Virus genome (UHGV): UHGV-0084588
Length of the DNA stretch: 64,000 nt
Direction: 5' to 3' (one strand)
Source of the DNA: a virus
In this document: positions 7,878 through 64,000 of the stretch, in pieces
How the letters are laid out: every line of letters begins with the position of its first letter
Position numbering within the stretch: position 1 is the stretch's first letter
Made by a program: the position numbers and the translations under genes
Notes under the pieces: model-generated
Seen by the model: only the letters and a program-made list of their open reading frames with translations
The model's database searches: none
What the model was told of the DNA's origin: nothing

Positions 7878-7890
7878 CAAAAAATTCTCC

Positions 7891-10800
7891 TTAATCGCGA
7901 ATGATTACCGCCTGCACTTTATTGTTGGTGTCGATAAACGACATTACGCGCTCCTTGTTAAGATAAGGAGGTATCGGTAACGCAGCGTAATCCGCCAGGC
8001 TGTTATTAAATTCAGTTGCCACTAACGCATTAAGCGTTTCGGGGTCTGAGCTGACACCGGCCAATTCCATGACGCGTACTCGATTTAATGAGGAATAGTT
8101 GCTAATATAGTCCAACAACGTACCGTAGACTTTATTCGCAGTTGCGCTGTCTGCTGTAGAGCGGATGTTGGCACGAACCTCATCCTCATAAAGTCCCCCT
8201 AAACCGTAGTAAATAGGGGTATACGGATCATTAACAATAGGTTCGATATTGAACCCGGTTAAACGGTCGACTAATGGGATTTTCTGCGTAGTTCCCCCTG
8301 CTGCCGTACAGCTTACGTATTTATCTGTCGTGGATAAAAACACCACGATAGTATACACAGTGCCAGCTAAAGTCAGCGATGCATTAAACGTTATTGCGTT
8401 GTTTGCACCACGGGTGTGGGTAAACGTTACGTCAGGTTGTAATGAACTCCACGGTGCAGCTGTAACACGCTTCGTTGGTGTGAAACCTACCACTACCGAT
8501 TTCCCGCTACCGAAGTTCAAACCGAACCCTGCGTAACAATATTCACCGTTACTGTCAGTTAAACGATAACCGCGAGTGATGAGTAATGACAACCGCATAA
8601 ACTCGCCGTCGGTGTTCTTCCAACAACCTAAAACAGTTTCTAACACTGTTCCGGTTTTTGCGTTGCTTTCTGTTTCCCAACTTACCCGCATTCCTGCGTT
8701 TTTGAAAGTCGGGAATAAGTTGTGAATAAAACCATGAAGGTTATCACTTACCCCTTTCGCATCGAAAACCCACTTTGATGCGAGCTGGTCGTATTTCACC
8801 CCGTCTAAGGCTCTATACTGTCCACCGACGACATAACGCCAATCTGCTTCACCACGTACTACTGCCTGGAGTCCCGAAGCCCAGCAGGGCGCACCTACCG
8901 TTAAGTTAGCTAACCCAAGCACTGCACGTGTCGTGGAGCGGTGAATATGCGCGTTATCGTCAGCAGCGTGATCTTTCAGTTCACGGAAATCGTCCAGCCG
9001 TGTGACGTTACGCATCTCTGTAACGAACACTTCAGAAAGGTCATTGACGCCGATTAATCCCACACGCGTCATGGTATCCGTTTCAGCCTGACTGTAGCTG
9101 TCGTGAATAATGTACTTCGCTTTGTTGTCAACAATATCAACAAAAATCCCCGCGTAGATTTCTGTATTCAACTTCGGAAAACGTTCACTGACGTTAATCG
9201 TCGTCAACGGCACGGTGTATGTTTCGCCACCGATAAAATACGTTGATGCTGGAAGTGTAACCAGTATTTTGTCTTTGACCGTAACATCAATTAAGTCGTT
9301 ACCAGACTTACCAAAACGTATAATGTCGAGACGTGCCTCCGAGTCAACACCCCCGACAGCACTTTCCAATTTTTCAATCTGGGTAGTCTGCGCCATTACC
9401 ACACTGCCATCGAGTGCTAAAGTCGCGTCGTCCACATCCAGACCAAATTTAATCAAGCCACGTTTCGCGGTGGTTGCGTTCCCGGTACCAAATGCGGTAA
9501 ATGGGTGGTGGTGTACTTTAGGCGAATATTTATCTAACTCCGCCTGCTGTGCTGTGGAGATCGGCAAATCGACATCGGGTGTATTCGCAACGTTACCCAA
9601 ACCAAAGGTAATTTTGTCGATAGTAACTGAGCTGGTAAGTTGCATGTCGTTAATGTACGATTTAGCTGCAACTAGTTTACCGGTAAACTCAGCGTCCAGT
9701 TTTTCAATCAATGCGGGGGTTGCTGCGAGATTTTCAGCCGTACCGAATTCGTCCGTTAACTGCCAACACGCTAACGTAGTAACGTCTTCGGCAACCGGAA
9801 GAATAAACGTTGCTACGAATGGCGATGCTTTAATCCCACTACCGGTAAGTTCCACCGTAGCTGTAGATGCACCGTAGAATAATCCCGTACCACCTGCAGT
9901 ATTGCCCGGCAAATACGGCGCTACCGTGGTGGGGTCTAAGAGCTTCTTACCACGCCACAGTAATCCTCGGTCATCGGGATATAGCACAAGCTGGTTGTCG
10001 CCCGCTTGCAACGTTACCGGGTTGTTACCCACGTTAACATCAGTAGAACCTTGGCCGATGAACTTAATGGATTTCGGGTCAACGACAAACTGGGCACCTA
10101 AACGGGTCCCGTCAACGACATCGGGCGCTTTCTTAATGGTAACCGTGTTACCTTTATTCCCCGAGCTAATAGTGACGTTGTCAGCAACATTACCGATCAA
10201 TGATTTAAAGTGGTGGCTATTCTCCAATGCTTCTAGTGCAGCGTCCATGTTAGTGAAGTTAACACGTGCACTATATGTCTTGCCGTTTATGGTAATAACG
10301 ACATCAAACACGTTCCCTGTGCGTTTCAGTTGAAAACGCAGCGTAAAATCCCCATCCGGTATTGCTGGATTAGGAGCTTGGGAAAGATACTGAACTTCCG
10401 GTGTGGGATTCGAAAAACCGTTCAGTTCCAACTTAACGCCGACTTTACCCGCAGAAATTTCACCTGTAAGCTGGATAAATTTTCCAGAGTTAGTACCAGG
10501 TTTCTGATAGAAACGTAGGCTAACCGTACCGACGGCTTCATTACCAGACGCTGTTTTACGTCCGGTAACAATAAAGTCAATATCTTGCAGGTTAGCAGGT
10601 ACCGCATTAAAAGAAGTGGTGAATCCACTCTTCGTTCCTGTGTAACGAAGCGCACCGTGATACCTGTGACCATTACTAACGTAGCTTTCGCTAAAACGAG
10701 GACTCACGTATTTCGACATTGACACCGGGTCAACTTCCGTCGTGAACGAAGTAAAACCGGGCAGCGTTCCAATAGTTCCGTTAGCCGTTTTCGTAGCTGA

Positions 10801-12213
10801 CGTGCGTAATAGTTTCTTTTGTGCTGTCAACGTCGCTTGTGTTGGATACTTAGCATTAACATAGTCCGTTAACTGCGGCTTCGTTTTTCCGTAAGCTAAT
10901 GCTGCATCCGACGCAATGCCGTTCAACTCTAACGCACGGATCGGACCCCACGTATCTGTGTGTGGGTTGTCCTTACGTGTAACGTGTTCGTGCGCAGGCG
11001 CATTACGATACAGCTGCTCAACTAACTGATGATACTTAACTATTAACTGGTAAACATCGTTATCGACGTCGGGCTCCGGCGCACCGGGTAAAGAACGAAT
11101 TTGAACATAATCGTTTTCAGCCGCATACCAGTTCAGGTTAATGTTCGTTTTAGACTTCAACCATTTGGCTACATTCGTTTTCGAATACCCTGCCGAGAAC
11201 TCATCAGGCGGCGTATCGACGTTGAATGTATAATCCATGGTCTGTTTATTTGTTTTTACTACGATTACGTAAACGCCGTTTCCGGGCTGACGGGTTACAC
11301 TAAAATCGATATCGTTTTTTAACTCATCGTCAGTTAAACCGTTGATTAAAGTATAATCGTAGTTTGTTGAACCACTGCCAATAGCGACAGTTAAGACCAG
11401 TGAGATTTTGCGCTGTTTTAGCTGTAACCGTAGAATGCTTGCACCGCCGTTGGCATAACAGAGCATCCAATCGATCTGCTCGTTCGGATTCAACTTTGTC
11501 ATGTCTGGCAGAATAGCAGGAATTCTGTGTTTCACCGACAGGGAATAGTCGTTAAAGGTTGTCGCGTTATAACTCAGGCTATAACGGTGGCGAGCTGTGT
11601 TGTAGGTGAAACCGCCTTTATTATCGTACGCGGCATACTGCTCGGAAGTGATAACCTTGCTATTAGCACGATATTCCAAATCCAGTGTGTTGCGTGCGAT
11701 TGGGTTAAGCCGACTCACGACTTCCCCTAACGAATCGCCTACCCCAGCAATGGCCTGCATTAGCTCCAGTTCACCTTTCCAATTCTCCCAATCGAACTGG
11801 ATATCGACCGGTGGAAAGTAAACGTCTCCGATAACGGTGTCCCACTGACACGCGGAAGGGTATTTACCTTTATTAAGCTCGCGCTCTGCGGTAATCTGCT
11901 CTTGGGTTGCTTCACCGCAACCAACGGCATGGTAATCTACAGTAAAGTTCGATTTGTATTTGTCATTAACAATCCAAATCATCCCGTGAATGAGATAGGC
12001 TGTGCGCAACATACCAGTCTCGTACGGGTGTGTAATAACGTAATCGTCGCCTAAGGTCAGTATTTTGCCGCCGCTCTTGACCACCAGGGATGTGGTGAAA
12101 AAAGGGGCGTGGGCAGGTACCAACATTCGGTATTTCGTACCAATGACGGCGACCGCTTCACCGGTTATTTTATTCCCCGGTTTTTTGAAGTGTGGGTCTA
12201 AGACGACAGCCAT
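7891..12213 (-). CDS. Tail fiber-like protein (1440 aa)
   Basis: Track ORF with ATG at 12213 preceded by TAGGAG; very large Thr/Gly/Asn-rich protein with VHHH motif; second of three tandem giant genes. Confidence 0.6.
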   Translation of the reverse strand: MAVVLDPHFKKPGNKITGEAVAVIGTKYRMLVPAHAPFFTTSLVVKSGGKILTLGDDYVITHPYETGMLRTAYLIHGMIWIVNDKYKSNFTVDYHAVGCGEATQEQITAERELNKGKYPSACQWDTVIGDVYFPPVDIQFDWENWKGELELMQAIAGVGDSLGEVVSRLNPIARNTLDLEYRANSKVITSEQYAAYDNKGGFTYNTARHRYSLSYNATTFNDYSLSVKHRIPAILPDMTKLNPNEQIDWMLCYANGGASILRLQLKQRKISLVLTVAIGSGSTNYDYTLINGLTDDELKNDIDFSVTRQPGNGVYVIVVKTNKQTMDYTFNVDTPPDEFSAGYSKTNVAKWLKSKTNINLNWYAAENDYVQIRSLPGAPEPDVDNDVYQLIVKYHQLVEQLYRNAPAHEHVTRKDNPHTDTWGPIRALELNGIASDAALAYGKTKPQLTDYVNAKYPTQATLTAQKKLLRTSATKTANGTIGTLPGFTSFTTEVDPVSMSKYVSPRFSESYVSNGHRYHGALRYTGTKSGFTTSFNAVPANLQDIDFIVTGRKTASGNEAVGTVSLRFYQKPGTNSGKFIQLTGEISAGKVGVKLELNGFSNPTPEVQYLSQAPNPAIPDGDFTLRFQLKRTGNVFDVVITINGKTYSARVNFTNMDAALEALENSHHFKSLIGNVADNVTISSGNKGNTVTIKKAPDVVDGTRLGAQFVVDPKSIKFIGQGSTDVNVGNNPVTLQAGDNQLVLYPDDRGLLWRGKKLLDPTTVAPYLPGNTAGGTGLFYGASTATVELTGSGIKASPFVATFILPVAEDVTTLACWQLTDEFGTAENLAATPALIEKLDAEFTGKLVAAKSYINDMQLTSSVTIDKITFGLGNVANTPDVDLPISTAQQAELDKYSPKVHHHPFTAFGTGNATTAKRGLIKFGLDVDDATLALDGSVVMAQTTQIEKLESAVGGVDSEARLDIIRFGKSGNDLIDVTVKDKILVTLPASTYFIGGETYTVPLTTINVSERFPKLNTEIYAGIFVDIVDNKAKYIIHDSYSQAETDTMTRVGLIGVNDLSEVFVTEMRNVTRLDDFRELKDHAADDNAHIHRSTTRAVLGLANLTVGAPCWASGLQAVVRGEADWRYVVGGQYRALDGVKYDQLASKWVFDAKGVSDNLHGFIHNLFPTFKNAGMRVSWETESNAKTGTVLETVLGCWKNTDGEFMRLSLLITRGYRLTDSNGEYCYAGFGLNFGSGKSVVVGFTPTKRVTAAPWSSLQPDVTFTHTRGANNAITFNASLTLAGTVYTIVVFLSTTDKYVSCTAAGGTTQKIPLVDRLTGFNIEPIVNDPYTPIYYGLGGLYEDEVRANIRSTADSATANKVYGTLLDYISNYSSLNRVRVMELAGVSSDPETLNALVATEFNNSLADYAALPIPPYLNKERVMSFIDTNNKVQAVIIRD

Positions 12214-31703: not shown

Positions 31704-33077
31704 TTACTCCTCGTCTAACTCGCTGTACCATTTCGCTTTCCGAGACAGGATTCGATATTCCACATTATCGTACTCAAATACCCAGAAATAGTTATCGGGG
31801 TCTGCCTCATCGACCAGTTTTACAATGTCTAAGCTGGTTTGATACGGGTGGTATTCTTCCGCAGCAATAAGTGCCTGGAAGAATAACGCCAACCATTCGG
31901 TCGTTGTTTTCGACATACGTGCAATATCAGGGTTAGTCGTCGCAATTAACGCATAATCCGGGATAGTTTCGTGTAAGGTCGCTTTCCGCGTATCATTTTC
32001 CGGCCCACTGATTACAACACAGTTTAATGATTTATAAACGGTTGGTAAGTCAGTTACATCTGTCGTAGGCTTACTGATCGTTTTAGTATTTCTTTCTGCT
32101 ACCGTCAGGTCTGCCCATTCTCCAAACCGACTGATAGCTTTGACCCAGAAATCATATGGAAGGATAGGGGAATAAAGCGCCGCTACGTCTTCCTCATTAG
32201 GTATTCCACGAATTTTCCATCCAGGAACAATTGTAAATTTCGTGGTAGTGAAAATTTCAGGAAATACCTTTACCCCGACGGGGACAGTAAAGCTAGAATT
32301 AGCGAGAATATGTTCACGCAACGCTTGCTTTATTTTCGTTGGGTTTTTTCCCGCACGGCCGTAAATAATAACCGACATTGGGACAACTAGGGTGGACTCG
32401 TAGTTTTCTTGATCGTGCCAAGTATAGTAGTTGGTTTGGATAGCGGTGTAAGGAAATCCTGCCATTAACTCATTGATTTTCTTATGGTGTTCGGTAAGGT
32501 TAAACCCTTCCATCGCCTTTTCAACGACTGACTTGGTCGACAAAAATGTGTCGATTGGTGAAATCGGCATCTGCACTTCGATTTCGAATCCTGTGTAATC
32601 TTGATCGAAGTCTTCATCCGAGAACCAAACAATGATCTGATTATCTACATCAGTGTCATCTTGTACTTGATCTGCTGTTGCTTCATATTTCCAGCTCACC
32701 CAGCGTGGGAACCAATTACTGTTCGTCTGAATCATCGCACCGGACTGAACGCCAGAAATGGTTGATTGGAATTGGCCTAGTAATAGGCGCTGGAATTCAA
32801 GTTCGTCATTTCTCAGATTCCCCAAGATGGCTTGCTGGTAAATCCATTGAGAAACGGTTAGAATATGATCAGAAAACTCGGCTGGCACAACAACCGTCTG
32901 TTTTTCTCGTTTAGACGTAAAAGTCACCAATTGTACTTGCAAATTGGTTTTAGTAAACGTCTGTTTACTCTTCGCGTACGAGAGTGTCAAATCCGACAGC
33001 TCGCCCACCGGAGCGGTGACGCCGTCCTGATTGTCAAACAGTGCCGGTATCTGAATAAAACCTTGTAAGTCTAACAT
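31704..33077 (-). CDS. Hypothetical protein (457 aa)
   Basis: Track ORF, tightly coupled (3-nt gap) to the downstream 207-aa gene; no motif recognised. Confidence 0.5.
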   Translation of the reverse strand: MLDLQGFIQIPALFDNQDGVTAPVGELSDLTLSYAKSKQTFTKTNLQVQLVTFTSKREKQTVVVPAEFSDHILTVSQWIYQQAILGNLRNDELEFQRLLLGQFQSTISGVQSGAMIQTNSNWFPRWVSWKYEATADQVQDDTDVDNQIIVWFSDEDFDQDYTGFEIEVQMPISPIDTFLSTKSVVEKAMEGFNLTEHHKKINELMAGFPYTAIQTNYYTWHDQENYESTLVVPMSVIIYGRAGKNPTKIKQALREHILANSSFTVPVGVKVFPEIFTTTKFTIVPGWKIRGIPNEEDVAALYSPILPYDFWVKAISRFGEWADLTVAERNTKTISKPTTDVTDLPTVYKSLNCVVISGPENDTRKATLHETIPDYALIATTNPDIARMSKTTTEWLALFFQALIAAEEYHPYQTSLDIVKLVDEADPDNYFWVFEYDNVEYRILSRKAKWYSELDEE

Positions 33078-34069: not shown

Positions 34070-34111
34070 CCCTCCTGTACCCTTCGTGGTACAGGAGGGT
34101 CTTTCTTTTTA
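34070..34111 (+). terminator. Intrinsic terminator
   Basis: CCCTCCTGTACC-CTTCGT-GGTACAGGAGGG followed by TCTTTCTTTTT. Confidence 0.7.
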
Positions 34112-34154: not shown

Positions 34155-34889
34155 ATGACCTACCCAAAAATTATCACCCCGTACACACCGACGTTGGTTA
34201 TTGGTGCCGATGTAGAAACCAAATCGTTACGCCCCGATGCTTATCTGTTGAGTGCAGGATTAGTGGCGTTTGACGTCCCTACCTTGAAAATGGTTGGTTC
34301 CTCATACATCCGTATCGATCCTAACGATCCTAAAGCAAAAGCTATTTTCCACGAAGACCCACAAACGGTTGGATGGTGGGAAGGTAAAGGCGAACCTGAA
34401 TACGCACCGTCTCGTGAAGCCTATGCGGAAGCATGGGGTGGAACAACAGCATTGCCTGATGCTCTGTGGGCGATGCAAAAATGGCTCGGGGAGATCACCG
34501 CAAAACATGAGTTTGTTATTACCATGCGCGGTCCCGACTTCGATGCGCCGATTTTCATGAACGCTTTCGCACAGTGCGATATTCCGCCAGGGAAGTTCCG
34601 TAAATTTAGTGCGCTGGATAGCGATCGCACCGCAGAGCGTTTAGCCTTTGCGTTTGGTTTCGAACCCGACTTAACGGTAGAGCAAGTTTATTGGACGCGC
34701 GGTAAGCCCGCTTTTGAGCACCACGCAATGTGGGATGCAGCAAAAGAAGCCTACACCACGGCACGTATTTATCACCTCGCTTTGGTCACCCGCCAATACG
34801 GGTTTGAACGCGCCAAAGCCTGTCACGAAGAACTGAAAACTGGCGAGTATGTTGCGCCGCAGATTCGTGATCAATTAACCAGGGATTAA
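34155..34889 (+). CDS. DEDDh-type 3'-5' exonuclease (DnaQ/RNase T-like)
   Basis: 244 aa; ExoI-like VIGADVETKS (D-x-E), ExoIII-like EHHAMWDAAKEAY (H-x-A-x-x-D). Confidence 0.6.
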   Translation: MTYPKIITPYTPTLVIGADVETKSLRPDAYLLSAGLVAFDVPTLKMVGSSYIRIDPNDPKAKAIFHEDPQTVGWWEGKGEPEYAPSREAYAEAWGGTTALPDALWAMQKWLGEITAKHEFVITMRGPDFDAPIFMNAFAQCDIPPGKFRKFSALDSDRTAERLAFAFGFEPDLTVEQVYWTRGKPAFEHHAMWDAAKEAYTTARIYHLALVTRQYGFERAKACHEELKTGEYVAPQIRDQLTRD

Positions 34890-34891
34890 GA

Positions 34892-36412
34892 ATGAAGAAC
34901 GTTGATGTTGCAGTAATTTACACGGACGGTAGCCATTTGACCTCCCCGCTCGGTACAGGGGCGGGGATTCATGGATACTTATTTAATCGTGAAGCGATTG
35001 AGGATGGTCGGGTTTACCGCCATCCCACTATTCCAGAGGGGATTACGACGTCAGGATACCGCCAGATAAACAAGGATGAAAAACTTCCGCCTTTACCAGA
35101 AACCGTGGAGTTTATTGACGGCGTTGTTCCTGTACCAAAAATGTCACACTCCGACGTTGCAGAACTCGTGGCTTTCCTGACCGTCTTCGAACACGCCCCC
35201 TTCGTTGCCAAAAACTACGTTATCTATATCGACGCATCTTACGTTGTCAACACGTATAACGACTGGATCGATGGTTGGGCAGCACGTGGTTGGCGTCGTG
35301 CGGACGGTACACCTATTGCGAATCTGGAATTAATCCAACGGATGTGGGAGGTTAAACATCGCTTAAAGAAAGAAGGGAAAGGTGTTCGTGTCCTTAAAAT
35401 TAAAGGCCACTCTGGACGTTATGGAAACGAACGCGCAGACGAGTTAGCGCGGAAAGGCTCAATTATCTCTGCCCGAGGGGAGGGGTTAGACTATACACCG
35501 TATTGGTCAAAAGACGAGCTGCCTGAGGAAGAACAGCAACCGGAAGTTGTTGGTGAGGGTGTCAATTTGTCCGCTTTCCCCGATATCTGTGTTACGAAGT
35601 TCTGTTACCCGATGGTGAACGAACCCCATCCCACTGTTACAGTTAACGGTAATAAACTTTATTACATGTTCGGTGGAAACCACGCAAAACAGAAGGACGA
35701 TATCGTCTTCGTTGGTAAGTACATTCCAGATGCACAATTCTGCGTAATGTTTACCAAAGAACCGTGGGATAACGTATACGAGTTGGTAAATACCCATTCT
35801 GCGAAAGCGTGGGAAGGGGTGCCCCGTTTACGTCAATTTGATCCTATCGCCGTTGTTTTTAACTTATTCGTAAAGCGTAAGAAGTTCGCAGAAGCCGCTG
35901 CTAACGGCATTCCTATCGATCGGATGCATTTTAGCGAAGACAAAAACCTGTGGATGTTTGAAGATCTTTCGATTACACGAATTCTTCGTCCTGCGCTATT
36001 ATCTTATCGTTGTATTGCGATTCGTGATGAGCTTGCAGGTTGGTTACGCGATGCCATGGAAGGGAAAAACTCAGTAGTGTTGAATGACATTACTGACGTA
36101 CTTTACGATGAGAAAGGTAAGCCGAAGAAAGACATTTATCGTAACGTAGATAAAGGTTTTGACGTAACCATCCAGATCCCTGGTAGTAAAAACAAGGTTA
36201 AAGCTATCCTTACTCGAGGTATCGACATACCGACGCGTACGGAAATCAACCGTATCAAAGAACCGGAAGGGCGGTTCTACGTGGCTGTACGTCGTCCAGA
36301 ACGGCAGTATATCGAATACGCGTTGGTTTATATCGGGGAAAAATATCATGGTTTGTGGTGCGGCTATTATTCAAACAAACGAATATTGACGGATAAGGAG
36401 CTTGAATGCTGA
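34892..36412 (+). CDS. RNase HI domain protein with about 300-aa C-terminal extension
   Basis: VAVIYTDGSHL..., IDASYVVNTYNDWIDGWAARGWRRADGTPIANLELIQRMW, KIKGHSGRYGNERADELARKG match the RNase HI catalytic motifs (recalled E. coli: TDGSCLGNPGPGG ... KGHAGHPENERCDELAR). Confidence 0.8.
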   Translation: MKNVDVAVIYTDGSHLTSPLGTGAGIHGYLFNREAIEDGRVYRHPTIPEGITTSGYRQINKDEKLPPLPETVEFIDGVVPVPKMSHSDVAELVAFLTVFEHAPFVAKNYVIYIDASYVVNTYNDWIDGWAARGWRRADGTPIANLELIQRMWEVKHRLKKEGKGVRVLKIKGHSGRYGNERADELARKGSIISARGEGLDYTPYWSKDELPEEEQQPEVVGEGVNLSAFPDICVTKFCYPMVNEPHPTVTVNGNKLYYMFGGNHAKQKDDIVFVGKYIPDAQFCVMFTKEPWDNVYELVNTHSAKAWEGVPRLRQFDPIAVVFNLFVKRKKFAEAAANGIPIDRMHFSEDKNLWMFEDLSITRILRPALLSYRCIAIRDELAGWLRDAMEGKNSVVLNDITDVLYDEKGKPKKDIYRNVDKGFDVTIQIPGSKNKVKAILTRGIDIPTRTEINRIKEPEGRFYVAVRRPERQYIEYALVYIGEKYHGLWCGYYSNKRILTDKELEC

Positions 36413-37074
36413 TCGTTTATAGTGAGGTCTTGTCAAAAGCCCCTCGGTTTTTACAAACTCACTTTATGTATAACGCACGGCAGTATTGGGGCTTTAAAGC
36501 CCCTTACTCCGAAGATTGGGAAGTTGTGGAAAAGTTAGCATTTGTGTTTTCTCTTTCGTTGTTGTGGGAGATCATTGCACTATACAACGCGGGTTGTGAT
36601 ATCCCTGAGAACGGCTTTTTCCAACAACACCTATTCCAAAAATTCACAGCATCGATAGAAAATCATGAAGTACGCAAGGAGTGTATCGGCTACGCAGAGC
36701 ATTCTGAAGAATTGAGAAAGATTTCCAAATTAGTTATCACGCGGGCATGGGCTGAATTCGAAACTTACCCCGAAAAAATAATTTGGTTTAATCGTGAACA
36801 GTTTATTAAAGAGGCAGTCAGTCAACATCCCGTTCGATTAATCGTGTTAAAGCCGTCCGATCTTGCCTTACGCCGTGTCTATTCGTTTCCAGAGGAAATC
36901 ATTTTTTCCGCAGGAACAGCAGATTATGGTATTTTTAAGCAAGGTGATTCTTGGATTCTTCCGCACGACTTAGACCAGTATTTGCTCAATAGCGATCAAA
37001 TACATTCGGGTTATGACTCACAGGTGAAGGAGTTTACAGTCGATCCTTTTTTCGCTAAAAATATTCTTAGATAG
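36406..37074 (+). CDS. Hypothetical protein (222 aa)
   Basis: Track ORF; start overlaps the RNase H stop (ATGCTGA). Confidence 0.4.
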   Translation: MLIVYSEVLSKAPRFLQTHFMYNARQYWGFKAPYSEDWEVVEKLAFVFSLSLLWEIIALYNAGCDIPENGFFQQHLFQKFTASIENHEVRKECIGYAEHSEELRKISKLVITRAWAEFETYPEKIIWFNREQFIKEAVSQHPVRLIVLKPSDLALRRVYSFPEEIIFSAGTADYGIFKQGDSWILPHDLDQYLLNSDQIHSGYDSQVKEFTVDPFFAKNILR

Positions 37075-38920: not shown

Positions 38921-39406
38921 ATGAACGTAAATGCAATTATCAATCTCTCTAATAGCGACATTGTCCACGAGTTTCTGAACCACTGCGATCGCACAGAACA
39001 GTCTATCCGTAACTTGTTAGCTCCGAAAACAGTGGATGCCATTTGGATAGCTTCACAGGCAGCGGGCGTTATCGTTGCAAGATATCGCGCGACATTGCTA
39101 ATGAATCTGGACAATTTCTTCGATCAGCCAGGGCTTATTACATGGACTTCTATCGGGCGTCGGTTTTACGACATCCGTATCGAAACCCTACGCTCGATAA
39201 TTAATGGCTGGCACAACGGGTATATGCCTGACGTAACAGTACCCTACACTGCTCCCGAATGGCGACGCTTTTATAGTCAGATATGGAGTAATGAAAGCGT
39301 TTATCATGAAATAGTGGCACTTATCAGTGCCGACCAAAGCCAACTTGCATACCAGCTATGGGAGTGGCTAAAAGCTAATTATCCTGATTACGTCAAAATC
39401 GACTAA
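38921..39406 (+). CDS. Hypothetical protein (161 aa)
   Basis: Track ORF; terminator 39412..39445 follows. Confidence 0.45.
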   Translation: MNVNAIINLSNSDIVHEFLNHCDRTEQSIRNLLAPKTVDAIWIASQAAGVIVARYRATLLMNLDNFFDQPGLITWTSIGRRFYDIRIETLRSIINGWHNGYMPDVTVPYTAPEWRRFYSQIWSNESVYHEIVALISADQSQLAYQLWEWLKANYPDYVKID

Positions 39407-39411
39407 CACCC

Positions 39412-39445
39412 ACCCTAGCTTCGGCTAGGGTAACTTTATTTTTAA
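39412..39445 (+). terminator. Intrinsic terminator
   Basis: ACCCTAGC-TTCG-GCTAGGGT followed by AACTTTATTTTT. Confidence 0.65.
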
Positions 39446-39465: not shown

Positions 39466-40392
39466 ATGTATTTGTACAAAAGTAAAAAAGTAAAAGGTAT
39501 TAAAGACTGCCTTAGACAAATGGGGAGTCAGCATCTAGAAAATGTCATGGAAGAAAATCAAACAAAAGAAAATCCCGTCTCGAAGTGGATAAAAAAGAAT
39601 CGTAAGCATTTAACTAATGCCTTTATACCCTACGACGCTGAGTTAGGCCTCAAAGATCCCCGTTCTCTTCACGCTCAAACATTGGCAATTGGATGGCTAT
39701 ACGGTGGTGCTTCCTTAATATCCGATCGAGCACTTAGAGAACTTGTTTTCGAGACTGAGATGCCCAGTAAATTCCCTGAAGAGTGGTTAGACTTTATACC
39801 TACTTGGACTGTAGCAATCGATGTAGGTAAAGAAGATGAGACTTTCTTTCTCGGTTATCGAAAAAATAGGAATAGAAGGTTTATTATAATCGCTACAAAT
39901 ACTGATTACGGGTTAACAGAAGGCGTTACCACGATCGCCACCTGCTCGTTAGAGATATGTAGTGTTGGAAACGGGCTTGTTGAAATCGATTATACGACTG
40001 GCGTACAGACCGAACAAGAGAAGACGTTATGGTTATCACTGGCTAAGACCGCCATATCGTTGATATTTCTCTGTACGCTAATCCCGCCTAATCTCAGAGG
40101 GTCTTTCAATGACATTAAGTTCAAAGAAATCAAAAAGAATGGTAGCATAAGTCACGAAATCAAACCTCGTGAACGTGACGTTAAAATAGACATCACGCCA
40201 GGACAAGTGAAATATCTAAAGGGATTTAACACCGACTTGAAAACCATGGAAGGTATCAAACACGCCAAGGCTGCACATATTCGTCGCGCACACTGGCGCA
40301 GATATTGGGTCGGTCCAAGAGATGGGGAAAGGAAGAGAAAACTTTACTGGATTCCGCCTACATTTGTCCGTGGCTACGTACCCCACAATTAA
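39466..40392 (+). CDS. Hypothetical protein (308 aa), paralog pair with basic Trp-rich C-terminal motif
   Basis: C-terminus AAHIRRAHWRRYWVGPRDGERKRKLYWIPPTFVRGY; internal GWLYGGASLISDRALREL; AGGAGAAT RBS. Confidence 0.5.
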   Translation: MYLYKSKKVKGIKDCLRQMGSQHLENVMEENQTKENPVSKWIKKNRKHLTNAFIPYDAELGLKDPRSLHAQTLAIGWLYGGASLISDRALRELVFETEMPSKFPEEWLDFIPTWTVAIDVGKEDETFFLGYRKNRNRRFIIIATNTDYGLTEGVTTIATCSLEICSVGNGLVEIDYTTGVQTEQEKTLWLSLAKTAISLIFLCTLIPPNLRGSFNDIKFKEIKKNGSISHEIKPRERDVKIDITPGQVKYLKGFNTDLKTMEGIKHAKAAHIRRAHWRRYWVGPRDGERKRKLYWIPPTFVRGYVPHN

Positions 40393-40417
40393 GCTAAAAG
40401 TGTTTAGGAGCATTAAA

Positions 40418-41317
40418 ATGATAGCGAATAATAGACTTTACGGGAAAGCGCTAAGACGCATGAGCGAACAGATAGAAAAAGCGCACCAAACAATTCACGG
40501 ATTAGACCAGTGCCGTTTTATTCGGTTCATTAACGAGCATAAACGACAAATACCCGTAACGTTTATGCCAGTTAAAGATCCGACTTATCGAGAGTATGGT
40601 GTTACAGAACAGATTCCTAGACTGATTAAACAGTCCCTGGGTCTAGGGTGGCAATACGCTGCTGTTGAAATCATCTCGGATGAAGAACTGATGGCGCTCT
40701 TAGCAAAAACTGAGAGACTAAAAAATATCCCGTACTTCTGGATAGAAACCATCCCTTCATTTACTTTCTCGGTTACCGTAAATCTCGACGAAAGCCCAAT
40801 CACGTTATTTATCGGAAGACGTCTTTACGAAGGCGAAGAAGTTCTCTTTGTGATGTCATGCGAAGAACGTGAAGAATCGGTATACATGGAGTTTGAGATT
40901 TACAAAATCGATAAAAGCGAAGATGATTTCGTCGAGCTAAAACCGCTCCTTACTTCGGTTAAAGAGAATCAACGACTACTCGACGCCGTCTACATCGGGC
41001 TATATCTTTCGTCACGAATTAAACGTACTGAACGTGAGAAGAAAGAATTTCGTGGAAGAACGATTCGTTATGTTCCTGATACAGAGATTCGCCCACGTAG
41101 TGAAGCAGTCGTTTTAGACGTAAGTCCGGTACAATGGGAAGATATAGAGCAGCAACGCAAGGAAGGACACGAGGTTTGTTTGGCAATTTATTGCGCAGCA
41201 CATATCCGTCGTGCTCATTGGAAGCGTGTATGGTGTGGTAAAATGTCAGAAATGCGCTGGCGCGAATGGCGATGGATAGCGCCAAGCTACATCTCTGGAT
41301 TTTATCGTGGGAAATAA
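40418..41317 (+). CDS. Hypothetical protein (about 300 aa), paralog of 39466..40392
   Basis: ATG at 40418 after TTAGGAGCATTAAA (track start 40322 lies inside the upstream gene); C-terminus AAHIRRAHWKRVWCGKMSEMRWREWRWIAPSYISGF; internal GWQYAAVEIISDEELMAL. Confidence 0.5.
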   Translation: MIANNRLYGKALRRMSEQIEKAHQTIHGLDQCRFIRFINEHKRQIPVTFMPVKDPTYREYGVTEQIPRLIKQSLGLGWQYAAVEIISDEELMALLAKTERLKNIPYFWIETIPSFTFSVTVNLDESPITLFIGRRLYEGEEVLFVMSCEEREESVYMEFEIYKIDKSEDDFVELKPLLTSVKENQRLLDAVYIGLYLSSRIKRTEREKKEFRGRTIRYVPDTEIRPRSEAVVLDVSPVQWEDIEQQRKEGHEVCLAIYCAAHIRRAHWKRVWCGKMSEMRWREWRWIAPSYISGFYRGK

Positions 41318-58131: not shown

Positions 58132-61100
58132 TTACGCCGATTTACGACTAACGTCGAGTTGTGGCGCTGGTTGGGTTATTGACACGTTACGTGACGCCGA
58201 ACCCGGAGCGGTTGACGCAGGGTTAGCCGGTCCGTTTTGCATAGCCTGTGGTCGCTGACGAAGAATTGTTACAATCTCTTTCAGGTAGCCCGCAGACTCT
58301 TTTGCAACCGCCAGCTGCTGTACGCTGATCGGATCACCGCTGTTCACTGTAGAGCCGGTCTGTGCATCGGACGTTACTGTTGGTGCAGGGCGGACTGATT
58401 TCTCCATCTGCTGTCTAGCACCTTCTTTTACTTTAGCAACATCCTCTTCGGCCAGGCCGTCAGCACGAGCGTTTTGACCCACCGTATCTACAACAACTGA
58501 CGCATCACTCGGTGTAACGTCGCCGCCAGGGCTCGGCACAGCCGGACCACCGCCCGTCGCAGCTTTAATGTCATCGGCCCCCATTGCACCTTTATCTGCT
58601 AAGGCTGCATCACGATTCGCCTCGTTCGCAGCTGGCAGGTTATCTGCCGGGCCTGTGATAGACGGATCGTTAGCAGCGCCCGCAGCGATGGCTGGGGATG
58701 ACGGCATTGGCGTTACGCCTGTCGTCAAGTCTTTCACCGATGCCTGATTAGCCGCAATTGCGTTTGTTCCTACTGCACCAATCTTACCACCCATGATGTT
58801 GAGCACTTCATCCAAACTACGCAATTTTCCATTCTTGTAGAAAATTGTGCTGTTTGCCGCGATTTGATCGGCCGATGCACCACGCGATGACGGACCGTTC
58901 GGATCACGCTTCCATTCTTGCAGGAATTTCTTACCGCCACCTTGTCCTAAGAAGTGGTAGAGGTAAACTGCTGCACCAGGAGGATCGATGCCACCTAAAT
59001 CCTTTCTGGCTTTCTCGATATTGTCACGAATATGGCGGACACCAAGCAGAGTATTCGCCCACGGGTCATACTGGTCGGTTTGCGGGATACCGTAACGTCT
59101 AGCGTAAGCTTTCATCTGCGCACCCCAGGTATCGTTGATGAACTGGAACAAGCCAGCCGCAGAACTTCCTTTAGCTTTGATGCCGTATCTAAGTCCTGAT
59201 TCTGCTTGTGCCATTCCCAGAGCTAACGCTGGGGGAACACCCATCATCTTCGCTACATCTGTAATCAGTGCCGCAACCGCATTCAGGTTAGGCTTCAATC
59301 CGTCGCCCAACGTTGAAATTGGATACTTAGCCGCTAACGTTTTATAATCACCGTCTTGCATCTCGCCAAGCTTCACACCGAAGTTACCGGTACTAAACGC
59401 GGCGTAATTCTTAGCTCCCATCTGACCATAAGCACCAGCCAAATCGTTTGGCGTGCCGTAATTCCCACCGTCATTCGCTGCCGGTTGAAGCAGATCGCGA
59501 TAAGAGGAGGAAGTATTCATCTGTTGCCGAGGTGGTTGGTCCTTCTCGTCATCGGTCAAGAACATCTGAGTCGCACGATCTTTTCGCTGCCAGTTCACAC
59601 GGAAACCAGCAGAAGGCGTAGCACGCAGCGTTTTACGTACTGCCAAATCAGCTTCCTTAGACAGTTCTTTCAGATTCTCTAACTCCGTCGCAACTGAACC
59701 AGCGTCAGTGTTAGCATCACCCCCTAACGGGTTAAACGGTACCTCCCACACCGATTGGCGAATACCCCCTTTCAGGTTGTATGCACCACGCATCATCAGT
59801 GCGATTTCATACAAGAACCCGCCTGTAACGCGTAGGTCCATCGGATCGGCAGCAGGGACATAACGTTTCACTCCAACCACGTACGTCATGAAGACAGGTA
59901 AGAAGCGGTTATAGAACCAGTTCTTGTACCGATCTTCTTTTGGCCCACCAATAGCGTCAGGTGCAATCACCGCAATCGCACGTTTCCAGTCTCCTTTATA
60001 CGTACAACTTTTCACATCAGTGTCTTGCAACACTTGACGTTCTAGGAGCGTATAGAGGTTACGGGTTGTTTGAGTAATGCTCACAGCACCATAAGCTTTC
60101 AACCTTACAGATTCCAAATCACGGAGATCGGTTTCTTTAGGTAAGCTTCTCCAGTCAACTTGAACCTGAACTTGTTCGGTGCCGTCTTCCCAACCTTCAA
60201 CCTTTGCAACCTCTTTGTTGCGTTCCGCATCCGCTTGAGCCAACGCTTGGGACGATTCCGCCACAGAAGCAACTTTGTGTCCTTCGGCCACGCCGCCTGT
60301 AGCATTAACATCCTTACGTTTTTCATCACGACGCATGTTAATCGAACGAAGCACGCGTTCTTGTGCTTCAACGACTTCTTCACCTGACAAAAACTCGGCC
60401 GGGGTAAACGTTACGAAATCCCACGCTTTAGAGAACCAACCTTGGTTAACCTTGCGGGGGTCTTCTAATGCACGGAATGCAGGTGCGTCTTTCGACATCT
60501 TCATTTTGTTAAAGATGTTCAACATGTCTGCTTTCGACACTTTCGCTGGATTACCGACGTCAGCTAACGCGATATCGTTATCCATCGATTTCAGTGCCGT
60601 AATCCAACGTAAGTAAATAGGCACAAAACGTTGTAGCATAAACGCACTAAACGCCAGCATTTCGCCTTTGTCTTCTACGTTAGTACCAAACCCTTCGGCC
60701 AGTTTCTTCACGTCGTCACCGGACAAACCACGCAGCTGCGCTTGACCGTTCTCTGTATAAGAGATATACGGTTTCAAGTTGTCTTCTAAATAACGTGCTT
60801 TTGCACCGTCGTCGGAAGACCATTCATCGTGGTCTCTAAAACCGTACTGCGCCAATCGCATGTTATCCAGATACTGGGCATTTACACGGGTTGCAGTTTT
60901 ATACGCAAACCAAGACAGCGCAGCGCCTGCAGCGACCAAGCCAATAATCGGCCAGCCAACCGCAGTTACCACTGCAGATGCCGCTGTCGCGACAGCACTC
61001 ACCGCAGGGACAGCCAAACGGGTCACAGCAAACTTACCAACGTTCCACAACGCTTTGCCTGCAAATCCAACCGGCTTGAAGATTCCCCATTTTGCAACTT

Positions 61101-64000
61101 TACCTAAGATTGAACCCACTGTGCCCAAAATACTCACAATCGGTCCTACCAACGGCAGTCCTTTAAGGAAATCCATTACCCCACGTTTACCACCTTTCTT
61201 CTCAGCCTCTTTCTTAGCCTTTTCCTCTTCCTTAGAACGACGACGGCGTCGGAAGAACTGGAAGTAATCGCGTTTTTCATCACTGGCAGGCGGCTTATTG
61301 CGTTGGCCGAACTTACTGAACATAGTTCTTAACAAACCATCCGAAGCACCTGCTTTTTCCGCAGAATCACGCATGGTGTTAAACCATGACATTTCCTGAA
61401 GATTAACCATTCGGTTCAGGCGTTCCAGTAAAGCTGACCCAACGCTACGGGCTTTCTGTTTCCCTTTATTAATCACACGACCAGCGCTATCCATTACGGT
61501 GTCTAAGTCTTCTTTTGCCGCATCGACGATACGTGTTTTAGACACCTTGCCTCTTGCGTAGATGTGTTGACGGTAAAACTCAGCAACATCGTCATCGCGT
61601 CCTGCTAAACGACTCTCCATTCGATAACGTGTGCCAATATCGAAACGTGGATCACGGAAAGTATCGACCATATCGCTTGCACGACCACGGAAACGATCAA
61701 ACCAACCACGTGCGGCACCGCCCCAACGAGAAAGACGATCGCCTACCGCACCGCGATAACGGGACATTCTGTCACGCATCCGACCACGCCAATCCCGGAA
61801 CCCCTGAAAATGTTCACGGAACCCTTCACGTATGTCTTTAGCACGTTGGAATAATCCTTTAACTGAGCTGGCTCCCGTATTCCGTTCCATCTGTTCTGTC
61901 CAGGTATCATCTTCTGGTTCACCTGGCAATCTCCGGTTAAGGAGTTTGTAGATACGGATTAAGATGTGGTTAGTTTTACGGCCGTTCGACCATGAGAACA
62001 CACTAAACCCACCACCAGAACCCCCTTCCTTACGGTTCTGCCACCAACGTGTCAGAGGGTTATCAGAAGCCAACTCTTTGAGCTTCTCAAACCCGCGTTT
62101 TGCATTGTTCCACAAACGTGCTGGCATTCCCGTTACACGGGAAATCATGCTTTGTAAACGGGTTTTCTCTGCGCCCTCTGGAACCTCATTTAACCACTCA
62201 CGTGCTTTCTCGAACAACGAAGCCGCTTTAGGTGAAATGAAGCCTAAAAGTTTCTTCGGTAAAGTCACAGCTTTGTTTACCGCCGTTCCTGCTTTCCCAG
62301 AAATGTACTGGAAAAGCGCTTGAACTTTACCGCCTTTGTAGAATCGCAGTTTACCTGCGGCAGCCAAATCAGCAGCAGATAAGATTAAATTACCCGCTTC
62401 ATCGACAATATCACGTCCCAGTTTAATATCGTCGAGGGTTTTAAGTTGAATCAGCTTCTCAGTTTTCGGGTCAGCCTGGTAATATTCCCCAGCTTCTAAA
62501 CGACTTCCTTGTAATACGACGTTGCCACGTTCATCGTAAATATCACGAACACCTAAAACGCCTTTACCGAAAGCTACAGCAGAATTCCAACCTGTCGATA
62601 GAGTACCTGTTACTAACCCTTTCAGTCGGCTAAATACACCGGGTCCTTCGGAGGAGCCGCCTGAGAATTTCCCACGGATAAAACCACCTAAAGCCTGCAG
62701 ACGATCTTTCCCACGTAGGAACAGATTCTTACCAAAACGCCCTACACCTGAACCGGTATCCCAAAGCACCCCAGCCCAACGGCGTAACAAGCCTGTCTCG
62801 CCTAGCACAATACGTTTGCGTTTACGACGACGTTTACGACCCGAGTCACTCGAACTTTCAGTTTCGTCACCGTCATCACGACTACCGCCTAAACTGGCTA
62901 GGAGAATACCTTCCTCATCCATGTTCTTAACGTGTTTGAGGATATCTTGCACTGTGCTAGATTCGGGCTGTTTACGTACAGCATCAATCAAACGGTCGAA
63001 TTGCTGTTCCAACCCGGCGTTCGTATCTGGACGACTGCTTAATAGTTCAACAAAGTTAGTGGATTTCTCTCCATAAAGTACCGCAGCGAGTTGACGTGCG
63101 CTTAAACCGCGACCACGACCACCTTTTCCACCGCCACGCACATTGGACAGTTCTTTGTCTTCAAAGCTCGGCTCTGCACCTGCACCCATCCGACGCAAGT
63201 AATCACCCAGCGCAGAACCGTTTTGCAATTTACGCTGAATCTCTTGCTCACGGGTTAACGAACGTCCAGAGCGGGTCTTACCCATCGACAGGTCATTAAA
63301 TAACGTATAGGGATCGTTAATGTCCTTATCGACCTCGAAAATGTCTTTCTTCGCATCGTATTTAAAAATACCGGAATCACGAAGTGCATTCTCGCCGTAA
63401 ATCACAGACGCAGCATCAACAGTGTCCTGACGTGCGCGAATCGTTGACTGGATAGCGGCGATTTTGTTTGAAATCGCGTTGCTCAATTCATGGTGTCCAC
63501 CAACCAGTTCCGCAGAACGGGCTTCTAAAACACCCTGAATCGCTTCCACAGCGTTTGCGTTCATGTACCGATACATGTGCATCGGGTCTTTCAATAAAGA
63601 CCCTACATCGAACGCTTTCCCTTCCGAGGCACGGGATTCGATGTAGTCTGCTAACGCCTGACGTGTTTTCCGATCGAGCGTTTTATCTTTATCGATAAAG
63701 TCGACTGTATCGTTGATGTAAGTCTGTAAACGTTTACGCTGATCGTCATTAGCAACCGCTTTACGAACACGATTACCAATAACTTTACGATCCACCATAC
63801 CGCGTGTGGTCAGGTCATAAACCTGATCGTGGTGTTCACCATATCCACGACGAATAGATTTGTTAATCTCGGACAGTAACGTCGGAATAACTTCAGTGAT
63901 GCTGAGGTAAGCTTTACGATCGAATTTCGCCGCCGCAGAAAGAGATTCCGCAGAGCGATCGTCTAATGCTAACGTTTCGCGACGTAGCGGGTTAACCAAT
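58132..64000 (-). CDS. Giant virion-associated protein with TM segments and lytic transglycosylase (SLT) domain, N-terminus beyond window (>=1955 aa)
   Basis: Frame stays open to the window end (the track M is a TTG codon). Hydrophobic block LPLVGPIVSILGTVGSILG...AVSAVATAASAVVTAVGWPIIGLVAAGAALSWF; SLT motif MGVPPALALGMAQAESGLRYGIKAKGSSAAGLFQF near the C-terminus; Arg/Gly-rich repeats. Confidence 0.65.
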   Translation of the reverse strand, partial: LVNPLRRETLALDDRSAESLSAAAKFDRKAYLSITEVIPTLLSEINKSIRRGYGEHHDQVYDLTTRGMVDRKVIGNRVRKAVANDDQRKRLQTYINDTVDFIDKDKTLDRKTRQALADYIESRASEGKAFDVGSLLKDPMHMYRYMNANAVEAIQGVLEARSAELVGGHHELSNAISNKIAAIQSTIRARQDTVDAASVIYGENALRDSGIFKYDAKKDIFEVDKDINDPYTLFNDLSMGKTRSGRSLTREQEIQRKLQNGSALGDYLRRMGAGAEPSFEDKELSNVRGGGKGGRGRGLSARQLAAVLYGEKSTNFVELLSSRPDTNAGLEQQFDRLIDAVRKQPESSTVQDILKHVKNMDEEGILLASLGGSRDDGDETESSSDSGRKRRRKRKRIVLGETGLLRRWAGVLWDTGSGVGRFGKNLFLRGKDRLQALGGFIRGKFSGGSSEGPGVFSRLKGLVTGTLSTGWNSAVAFGKGVLGVRDIYDERGNVVLQGSRLEAGEYYQADPKTEKLIQLKTLDDIKLGRDIVDEAGNLILSAADLAAAGKLRFYKGGKVQALFQYISGKAGTAVNKAVTLPKKLLGFISPKAASLFEKAREWLNEVPEGAEKTRLQSMISRVTGMPARLWNNAKRGFEKLKELASDNPLTRWWQNRKEGGSGGGFSVFSWSNGRKTNHILIRIYKLLNRRLPGEPEDDTWTEQMERNTGASSVKGLFQRAKDIREGFREHFQGFRDWRGRMRDRMSRYRGAVGDRLSRWGGAARGWFDRFRGRASDMVDTFRDPRFDIGTRYRMESRLAGRDDDVAEFYRQHIYARGKVSKTRIVDAAKEDLDTVMDSAGRVINKGKQKARSVGSALLERLNRMVNLQEMSWFNTMRDSAEKAGASDGLLRTMFSKFGQRNKPPASDEKRDYFQFFRRRRRSKEEEKAKKEAEKKGGKRGVMDFLKGLPLVGPIVSILGTVGSILGKVAKWGIFKPVGFAGKALWNVGKFAVTRLAVPAVSAVATAASAVVTAVGWPIIGLVAAGAALSWFAYKTATRVNAQYLDNMRLAQYGFRDHDEWSSDDGAKARYLEDNLKPYISYTENGQAQLRGLSGDDVKKLAEGFGTNVEDKGEMLAFSAFMLQRFVPIYLRWITALKSMDNDIALADVGNPAKVSKADMLNIFNKMKMSKDAPAFRALEDPRKVNQGWFSKAWDFVTFTPAEFLSGEEVVEAQERVLRSINMRRDEKRKDVNATGGVAEGHKVASVAESSQALAQADAERNKEVAKVEGWEDGTEQVQVQVDWRSLPKETDLRDLESVRLKAYGAVSITQTTRNLYTLLERQVLQDTDVKSCTYKGDWKRAIAVIAPDAIGGPKEDRYKNWFYNRFLPVFMTYVVGVKRYVPAADPMDLRVTGGFLYEIALMMRGAYNLKGGIRQSVWEVPFNPLGGDANTDAGSVATELENLKELSKEADLAVRKTLRATPSAGFRVNWQRKDRATQMFLTDDEKDQPPRQQMNTSSSYRDLLQPAANDGGNYGTPNDLAGAYGQMGAKNYAAFSTGNFGVKLGEMQDGDYKTLAAKYPISTLGDGLKPNLNAVAALITDVAKMMGVPPALALGMAQAESGLRYGIKAKGSSAAGLFQFINDTWGAQMKAYARRYGIPQTDQYDPWANTLLGVRHIRDNIEKARKDLGGIDPPGAAVYLYHFLGQGGGKKFLQEWKRDPNGPSSRGASADQIAANSTIFYKNGKLRSLDEVLNIMGGKIGAVGTNAIAANQASVKDLTTGVTPMPSSPAIAAGAANDPSITGPADNLPAANEANRDAALADKGAMGADDIKAATGGGPAVPSPGGDVTPSDASVVVDTVGQNARADGLAEEDVAKVKEGARQQMEKSVRPAPTVTSDAQTGSTVNSGDPISVQQLAVAKESAGYLKEIVTILRQRPQAMQNGPANPASTAPGSASRNVSITQPAPQLDVSRKSA

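Follow-up and report, generated by a model that had tools for sequence, protein, structure and literature searches.

The locus and its two nuclease genes

The stretch of DNA analysed here, a window of 64,000 nucleotides (nt) from the virus genome UHGV-0084588, carries on its plus strand a gene (34892–36412) for a protein of 506 amino acids (aa), in which a type 1 ribonuclease H (RNase HI) domain is joined through an acidic linker to a C-terminal domain (CTD) of about 280 aa. Directly 5' of it lies the gene of a predicted 3'-5' exonuclease (Table 1). The 506-aa protein is almost certainly the orthologue of ΦKZ gp155 (ΦKZ155, or Nlp2), which belongs to the core proteins of the Chimalliviridae, the nucleus-forming jumbo phages. 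Taken alone, it is one more ordinary member of a core family already described and adds little. Work of 2025 showed, however, that ΦKZ155 gates genome amplification in these phages by a nuclease-independent mechanism, and the CTD sits at exactly that question. What the present analysis contributes is the boundaries of the CTD, a family size of about 1,000 clusters, the residues conserved in it, and a single structural lead that can be falsified, a resemblance to sliding clamps.

Table 1. Features of the RNase H locus in the window
Feature	Position	Strand	Basis or remark
Virion structural protein, ΦKZ gp157 orthologue	31704..33077	-	phrog_3293, E 2e-172
Terminator-like hairpin	34070..34099	+	12-bp stem with 8 G-C pairs, then T run; just 5' of the exonuclease gene
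Predicted DEDDh 3'-5' exonuclease, Rv2179c-like, 244 aa	34155..34889	+	PF16473, phrog_255, DEDDh motifs; ORF call
RNase HI domain, aa 1 to ~200 of the 506-aa protein	34892..35500	+	PF00075, E. coli RNase HI alignment, Foldseek
Acidic linker, ~aa 204-223, containing DELPEEEQQPEVVGEG	35501..35560	+	Poorly conserved; predicted disordered
Family-specific CTD, ~aa 224-506, two-lobed α/β fold	35561..36412	+	AlphaFold2 model of the CTD alone
Downstream ORF, 222 aa, phrog_9472 (function unknown)	36406..37074	+	PHROG match

An intact RNase HI domain at the N-terminus

The first ~200 aa of the protein had been assigned to RNase HI in an original prediction made from the letters alone, and this assignment is borne out. 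Residues 81–190 matched the Pfam family RNase_H (PF00075) with an E-value (E) of 1.2e-20 and 74.6 bits, against a cut-off of 25.8, and phmmer aligned the protein with E. coli RNase HI (E 1e-11), the basic protrusion being included in the alignment. The residues D12, E91, D114, D183 and H173 align with E. coli D10, E48, D70, D134 and H124; in an alignment of 40 homologues, E91, D114, H173 and D183 were invariant and D12 was conserved at 90% or more. When the full AlphaFold model was searched with Foldseek, E. coli RNase HI ranked first (E 2e-9), and most of the domain was modelled by AlphaFold2 (AF2) with a predicted local distance difference test (pLDDT) score above 90. By these sequence criteria, the N-terminal domain is an intact type 1 RNase H. 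Judged from its intact catalytic residues and from the in vitro result with ΦKZ155, it would be a working enzyme that cuts the RNA of RNA-DNA hybrids.

The domain has its fold, DEDD+H active site and basic protrusion in common with cellular RNase HI, such as E. coli RnhA and the catalytic domain of human RNase H1. The cellular form is a single domain of ~155 aa, whereas the present protein adds the CTD and a family-specific insertion of ~50 aa (aa 30–80), which lies between β-strands and is predicted with high confidence. Moreover, its scores of 64–68 bits are far under the NCBIfam equivalog cut-offs of 160–170.

A conserved family-specific domain at the C-terminus

For about aa 200 to 506, searches of Pfam, NCBIfam and the sequences of the PDB gave nothing, be it with one sequence, with a profile or with each family member in turn; the best matches were noise (NA-iREase1 at E 0.17, Spindlin at E 0.41). 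The domain search suggested along with the original prediction has thus been run, and its remark that the extension holds no recognised motif stands for Pfam. It does not stand for PHROG, where PHROG 3265 covers the protein from one end to the other, together with the extension (aa 1–504 to 2–496 of 496, E 1e-168).

In the AF2 model of the full protein (pLDDT 90.6, predicted template modelling score (pTM) 0.57), residues 209–219 fall below a pLDDT of 50, and the length of the linker in which they lie varies in the homologue alignment. Foldseek matches of the whole model were dominated by RNase HI entries and offered nothing for the CTD, which was therefore modelled and searched alone; its own model reached a pLDDT of 88 and a pTM of 0.84. 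As modelled, then, the CTD is a real, independently folded and conserved domain behind a disordered linker. Among 194 diverse members, the conserved polar residues of the domain are D269/D270, G275-K276, D280, D399-I400-T401, Y405, D445 and R449, of which D270, K276, D280, D399, T401, D445 and R449 are ready targets for the published knockdown and complementation assay.

A profile search with the CTD returned 1,051 clusters (at 50% identity) with E 1e-3 or better. The best 150 of these 1,051 matches consist almost entirely of proteins of ~500 aa that carry the CTD at the same position, with an RNase H domain nearly always in front of it. Ten length outliers were compared with Pfam: the long forms add an N-terminal GIY-YIG/I-TevI or Macro domain, and of the five short forms, three break off inside the RNase H domain. 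Because the architecture is nearly constant among the CTD matches examined, the sequence comparison indicates that the RNase H-CTD fusion is ancient and essentially obligatory.

Among P0110, P0157, P0220 and P0136, some proteins have an N-terminal GIY-YIG nuclease with an I-TevI-type DNA-binding domain before the RNase H-CTD unit, and one has a Macro domain in that place; such forms could have arisen by insertion of a homing endonuclease or as fusions made by gene calling, or could be genuine new architectures. In the predicted viral structures of BFVD, the entry I1VX43 (233 aa, rank 10) matched the CTD with E 1e-9 and a template modelling (TM) score of 0.53 on its own length, and could be, as far as the models go, a stand-alone or truncated CTD.

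A trivial explanation of the extension, namely that it is a separate open reading frame (ORF) joined by a frameshift or a sequencing artefact, had been named at the outset and is ruled out. The fusion forms one uninterrupted ORF on each of 28 independent viral contigs, and 173 phage genome records contain it as well (at least 80% coverage). In addition, a metagenome scaffold of 220,786 bp (ENA ERZ28659250, ZHAN15-1_SAMEA2737849_METAG-scaffold_21) encodes an identical 506-aa protein, with the same ORFs by an independent gene call and the same gene order. The extension is hence a folded, conserved domain within the same intact ORF.

Orthology with ΦKZ155/Nlp2 and the source phage

The assignment to ΦKZ155/Nlp2 is made because full-length similarity is combined with a conserved genomic position. 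In BLASTP, aa 5–494 aligned with residues 3–476 of ΦKZ155 (E 2e-32, 25% identity), and the CTD profile by itself found ΦKZ155 with E 1.6e-29. The top phage matches come from Erwinia phage Asesino (gp226, 66.5%), Escherichia phage EC001 and the SPN3US group; full-length matches at ~25% identity extend over the ΦKZ-type Pseudomonas phages. As for position, the divergently transcribed gene at 31704–33077 matched ΦKZ157 in BLASTP (27% identity over 460 aa, E 5e-48), and the window further holds genes for SbcC-like (165), baseplate, UvsX/Nlp1-like (152) and RNA polymerase β (149) proteins in the order found around ΦKZ146–165. The small flanking ORFs were also considered as orthologues of ΦKZ154, 156 and 156.1; BLASTP detected no such relationship, and the correspondence is one of position only.

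ΦKZ155, which corresponds to gp176 in ΦPA3, and the present protein share the order of RNase HI, linker and ~280-aa CTD and align from end to end at lengths of 506 and 482 aa; the neighbourhood and the catalytic residues are common as well, D102 of ΦKZ155 being D114 here. They differ in that identity is only 25%, that the present acidic linker is longer, that several of the CTD motifs (GNHAK, KRKKF) occur in the enterobacterial clade only, and that the present locus has the DEDDh exonuclease gene directly upstream, which ΦKZ lacks. Much closer are the proteins labelled 'putative ribonuclease H' in Asesino (gp226) and SPN3US-type phages, with 57–67% identity and an identical gene order: a gp157-like gene on the opposite strand, two small ORFs, exonuclease, RNase H, and the downstream ORFs.

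The source genome can be classed as that of a nucleus-forming, ΦKZ-like jumbo phage of the Chimalliviridae. Megablast against 50,697 phage records gave no DNA-level match, so the phage represents a new species, distinct from those of the Asesino/SPN3US type. It is an uncultured phage that recurs in metagenomes, since the identical protein lies on the ENA scaffold and a 97% identical copy of the 506-aa protein lies on an IMG/VR contig of 225,000 bp (IMGVR_UViG_3300029126_000001, L004). At the top of the homologue search stood a cluster representative with 97% identity (P0001), which comprises 229 member sequences. The genes of chimallin and Imp1/PicA lie ~100 kb from gp155 in ΦKZ and, by analogy, those of chimallin and Imp1 in the present phage are probably located outside the window.

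The orthology also settles how new the fusion is. The original prediction had allowed that the fusion might prove to be common and characterised, which is largely the case: it is a known Chimalliviridae core gene with a published phenotype, and a claim of novelty fails. When ΦKZ155 is knocked down, no mature phage nucleus becomes visible and amplification of the genome is blocked, while ChmA is not short and both the import of nvRNAP and nucleus-dependent transcription go on (PMC12571901). The protein cleaves RNA-DNA hybrids in vitro and is thus a bona fide RNase H, yet its D102N mutant, which has no RNase H activity, complements fully, and the authors concluded that ΦKZ155 has an essential, nuclease-independent function (PMC12571901). 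ΦKZ155 is found in the nucleus as a punctum at the periphery (PMC12571901), and the import of Nlp2 into the phage nucleus depends on Imp1/PicA (bioRxiv 10.1101/2024.03.27.586873). In the literature searched, no role was found to be assigned to the C-terminal two-thirds of ΦKZ155. These experiments support the link to replication that the original prediction had drawn. Primer removal, which it had put forward as the task, is not the whole story, because the D102N mutant complements in ΦKZ.

The upstream exonuclease as an accessory gene

The DnaQ-like exonuclease that had been noticed upstream of the RNase H gene is there. Its product matched Pfam PF16473 (Rv2179c-like 3'-5' exoribonuclease; E 4.7e-12, 46.4 bits, cut-off 27) and phrog_255 'exonuclease' (E 8.5e-45), and the five DEDDh residues, D19-x-E21 of Exo I, D130 of Exo II and H189-x4-D194 of Exo III, are conserved at 90% or more in an alignment of 14 homologues. 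It is accordingly classified from its sequence as a putative DEDDh (DnaQ-like) 3'-5' exonuclease of the Rv2179c-like subfamily. With the Rv2179c-like exoribonucleases of PF16473, it shares a Pfam score above the gathering cut-off and all DEDDh residues, but it differs in its phage-specific context. A search of solved structures by sequence returned none similar to it. Homologues carry the database label 'putative endodeoxyribonuclease', which is unsupported; because the Pfam domain and the motifs are those of a DEDDh exonuclease, this long-standing annotation of the neighbouring gene is corrected here.

The two genes are very close. The stop codon of the exonuclease gene (TAA, 34887–34889) is followed by a gap of 2 nt and then by the ATG of the RNase H gene; the position just upstream had been given correctly, while the spacing of 3 nt had not. 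To see how far the pair is kept, 71 viral contigs were recovered by RNase H alignment, and the 28 with a CTD were used for a neighbourhood count. The exonuclease lies directly 5' of the RNase H gene in all 17 close loci (at least 46% identity) and within 5 kb of it in none of the 11 distant CTD-bearing loci (at most 26% identity). By tblastn, the exonuclease was found in 65 phage records, as against 173 for the full-length RNase H protein, and the adjacency reaches as far as a Vibrio phage with an exonuclease of 33% identity. A hidden Markov model (HMM) scan of 275 of the 280 kb of ΦKZ found no relative of the exonuclease (best E 0.9), which rules out that it is a relocated core gene or a stand-alone proofreader of ΦKZ-type phages; the ΦKZ 'nuclease' gp65, considered as a counterpart, is SbcD-like instead. 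As the exonuclease is missing from 11 of 11 distant loci and from ΦKZ, its pairing with RNase H is not a defining module, and the obligate partnership implied by the original prediction does not hold. The distribution of sequences indicates an accessory gene that was added in one clade (SPN3US/Erskinevirus type).

Two observations on individual homologues may be added. In IMGVR_UViG_3300011741_000001 (L012), the exonuclease ORF at 4207–4998 (P0075) has lost D19, E21 and D130 (VAKT and FH stand there) and kept H189 and D194, and it still lies directly 5' of the RNase H gene; from its sequence, it is probably a retained but catalytically dead copy. In several Salmonella phage SPFM records (P0052, P0054, P0055, P0057, P0088–P0093), both genes appear fragmented or frameshifted, with high HMM scores and a BLAST coverage of 4–27%, which probably reflects error-rich assemblies rather than real variation.

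A probable transcription unit

At the terminator-like hairpin just 5' of the exonuclease gene, a new transcription unit probably begins. The next comparable hairpin lies at 39412–39431, and between both there are seven tightly packed plus-strand ORFs: exonuclease, RNase H and five small ORFs, the last at 38921–39406. Because the two hairpins bracket this array, the layout suggests that all seven genes form one transcription unit. The stop codon of the RNase H gene overlaps the start of the 222-aa ORF (ATG at 36406) by 7 nt, and an AAGGAG Shine-Dalgarno sequence stands just 5' of that ATG; translation of the downstream ORF is probably coupled to that of the RNase H gene. For gp155 of ΦKZ, co-transcription with gp154, gp156 and gp156.1 has been reported.

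A proposed role for the protein and its CTD

The best explanation of the whole, held with somewhat more confidence than doubt, is that the 506-aa protein acts as an Nlp2 orthologue whose CTD serves as a scaffold, with the exonuclease as an accessory. As inferred from ΦKZ, the protein would be synthesised in the cytoplasm and enter the phage nucleus via Imp1/PicA, and it would be needed when the young nucleus begins to amplify the phage genome. There, its RNase HI domain at the N-terminus would cut the RNA of RNA-DNA hybrids, for example primers or R-loops. The essential, catalysis-independent activity would most likely reside in the CTD, which may bind DNA or the replisome and hold the RNase H domain on the replication machinery; the chances for this scaffold role itself appear evenly balanced. 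The exonuclease, probably co-transcribed and translationally coupled, would trim 3' ends, either RNA remnants or DNA, as an accessory activity.

Structural comparison suggests a further step: the fold of the CTD may be a diverged form of that of sliding clamps or processivity factors. Foldseek searches of the CTD against the PDB gave no match at E 1e-3 or better, but the top seven matches were all archaeal PCNA, with 9-1-1 subunits and PF-8 of Kaposi's sarcoma-associated herpesvirus (KSHV) further down, each aligned over ~300 columns. The best of them, 3ifv_C, had E 8e-3, a probability of 0.44, TM scores of 0.22/0.26 and a root-mean-square deviation (RMSD) of 14.6 Å. Among predicted viral structures, ranks 1–10 were members of the family itself (TM 0.62–0.88 for nine of them), and the first match outside the family was a phage β-clamp (E 0.019, probability 0.60, TM 0.31); lower in the list, three gammaherpesvirus processivity factors and one giant-virus PCNA appeared, mixed with unrelated or uncharacterised proteins. 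Clamps and processivity factors (archaeal PCNA, 9-1-1, phage β-clamp, PF-8/ORF59) are thus the sole structural theme that recurs in two independent libraries; they are aligned over the full domain and resemble the CTD in size (~260 aa) and in their two-lobed α/β make-up. The order of secondary structure elements in the CTD model is partly compatible with repeated β-α-β-β-β clamp units, mainly in residues 369–498. Such a CTD, if true, would explain both why the protein is essential with a dead nuclease and why ΦKZ-type phages have no recognisable clamp. According to Iyer et al., these phages lack a classical sliding clamp, a primase of the DnaG or AEP type and a proofreading exonuclease fused to PolB, while RNase H1 is kept in all of them (PMC7824862).

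Several points weigh against this reading, some of them against its functional part and others against the clamp. What is said on function is carried over from ΦKZ155, an orthologue with only 25% identity. Catalysis is excluded by the D102N result, but the binding of hybrids by the RNase H domain is not, and placing the essential part in the CTD goes a step beyond that result. The clamp-type Foldseek matches are weak (E 8e-3 or above, probability 0.6 or below, TM 0.22–0.31, RMSD about 12–14.6 Å), and hhalign of the 194-sequence CTD alignment against PCNA was not significant (probability 1%), with a PCNA set of low diversity and metazoan members only. The five helices of the CTD are not basic, with family-mean net charges of -1.9, -0.6, +0.3, -0.9 and +1.7, and the median isoelectric point of the domain is 6.1, while its conserved acidic and basic residues resemble a binding or active site more than a clamp. 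Moreover, the single punctum of ΦKZ155 at the nuclear periphery is unlike a sliding clamp spread over DNA.

Comparisons of parts of the domain were without power in either direction. When the halves of the CTD were aligned with PCNA by hhalign, P was 0.019 and 0.06, against 0.19–0.39 for reversed controls, and when one half was aligned with the other, P was 0.14; in both cases, the positive control, the N-domain against the C-domain of PCNA, fails (P = 0.82). In sum, the CTD differs from clamps in insignificant scores, the lack of a profile signal, non-basic helices and conserved acidic residues, and its model does not superpose significantly on a clamp protomer (as, for example, a TM above 0.5 and a Foldseek probability near 1 would indicate). 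The CTD is therefore not classed as a clamp; the resemblance of the model is a lead, and a very divergent clamp or processivity-factor module is an unlikely, if conceivable, identity for it.

Alternative explanations

It has to be considered whether the CTD is instead an import or anchoring module, recognised by Imp1/PicA, that holds the protein at the import site of the shell, so that its essential role would concern maturation of the shell or import site, or hand-over of the genome from the early vesicle, and not the replisome. Nlp2 import does select specific Imp1 mutations (bioRxiv 10.1101/2024.03.27.586873), and the lack of a visible nucleus after knockdown (PMC12571901) would fit such a role. 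On the other hand, nvRNAP import and nucleus-dependent transcription go on without ΦKZ155 (PMC12571901); the cargoes Nlp1, Nlp3 and Nlp4 need no such domain (bioRxiv 10.1101/2024.03.27.586873); and the GFP fusion was ectopically expressed. A domain of 280 aa with conserved acidic and basic residues, fused almost constantly to a nucleic-acid enzyme, also looks like more than an address label. This explanation is considered rather improbable.

Equally improbable is that the CTD is a second, unrecognised metal-dependent enzyme, primase-like, a nucleotidyl-transferase or a nuclease, which would supply the essential function in phages that have no recognisable primase. The conservation of D270, D280, D399 and D445, together with K276, T401 and R449, across 194 diverse members would suit an active site; ΦKZ-type phages are devoid of DnaG-type and AEP primases (PMC7824862), and genome amplification halts without ΦKZ155 (PMC12571901). 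However, no primase, polymerase, Toprim or nuclease fold occurred among the Foldseek matches, and neither Pfam nor the PDB sequences gave a signal. A primase, Toprim or AEP domain, which the conserved aspartates had brought to mind, found no structural support in Foldseek, and it is kept as a possibility of low probability.

Least probable, and very doubtful, is the explanation of the original prediction, in which exonuclease and RNase H form a module for primer removal or hybrid processing and the extension targets RNA-DNA hybrids of host defence: the 2-nt gap, the apparent single transcription unit and the adjacency that is kept as far as the Vibrio phage speak for a module, but most lineages that bear the fusion, ΦKZ included, are without the exonuclease, one lineage's copy has lost three of its five active-site residues, ΦKZ can do without RNase H catalysis (PMC12571901), and nothing points to host defence, no defence or anti-defence signal having turned up, although no PADLOC search was made.

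Other features of the window

A scan of the 64-kb window for tRNA genes found none. Just 3' of the RNase H unit, two adjoining and slightly overlapping ORFs (39466–40392 and 40322–41317) both belong to phrog_6160 (function unknown) and form tandem paralogues. In addition, the window contains three very large ORFs, at 3696–7880, 7891–12213 (-) and 58132–63999 (-), of 1,394, 1,440 and 1,955 aa, respectively. The last of them ends one base before the end of the window, and two of the three are called with TTG starts; in this jumbo phage, the three probably encode parts of the virion or of an RNA polymerase.

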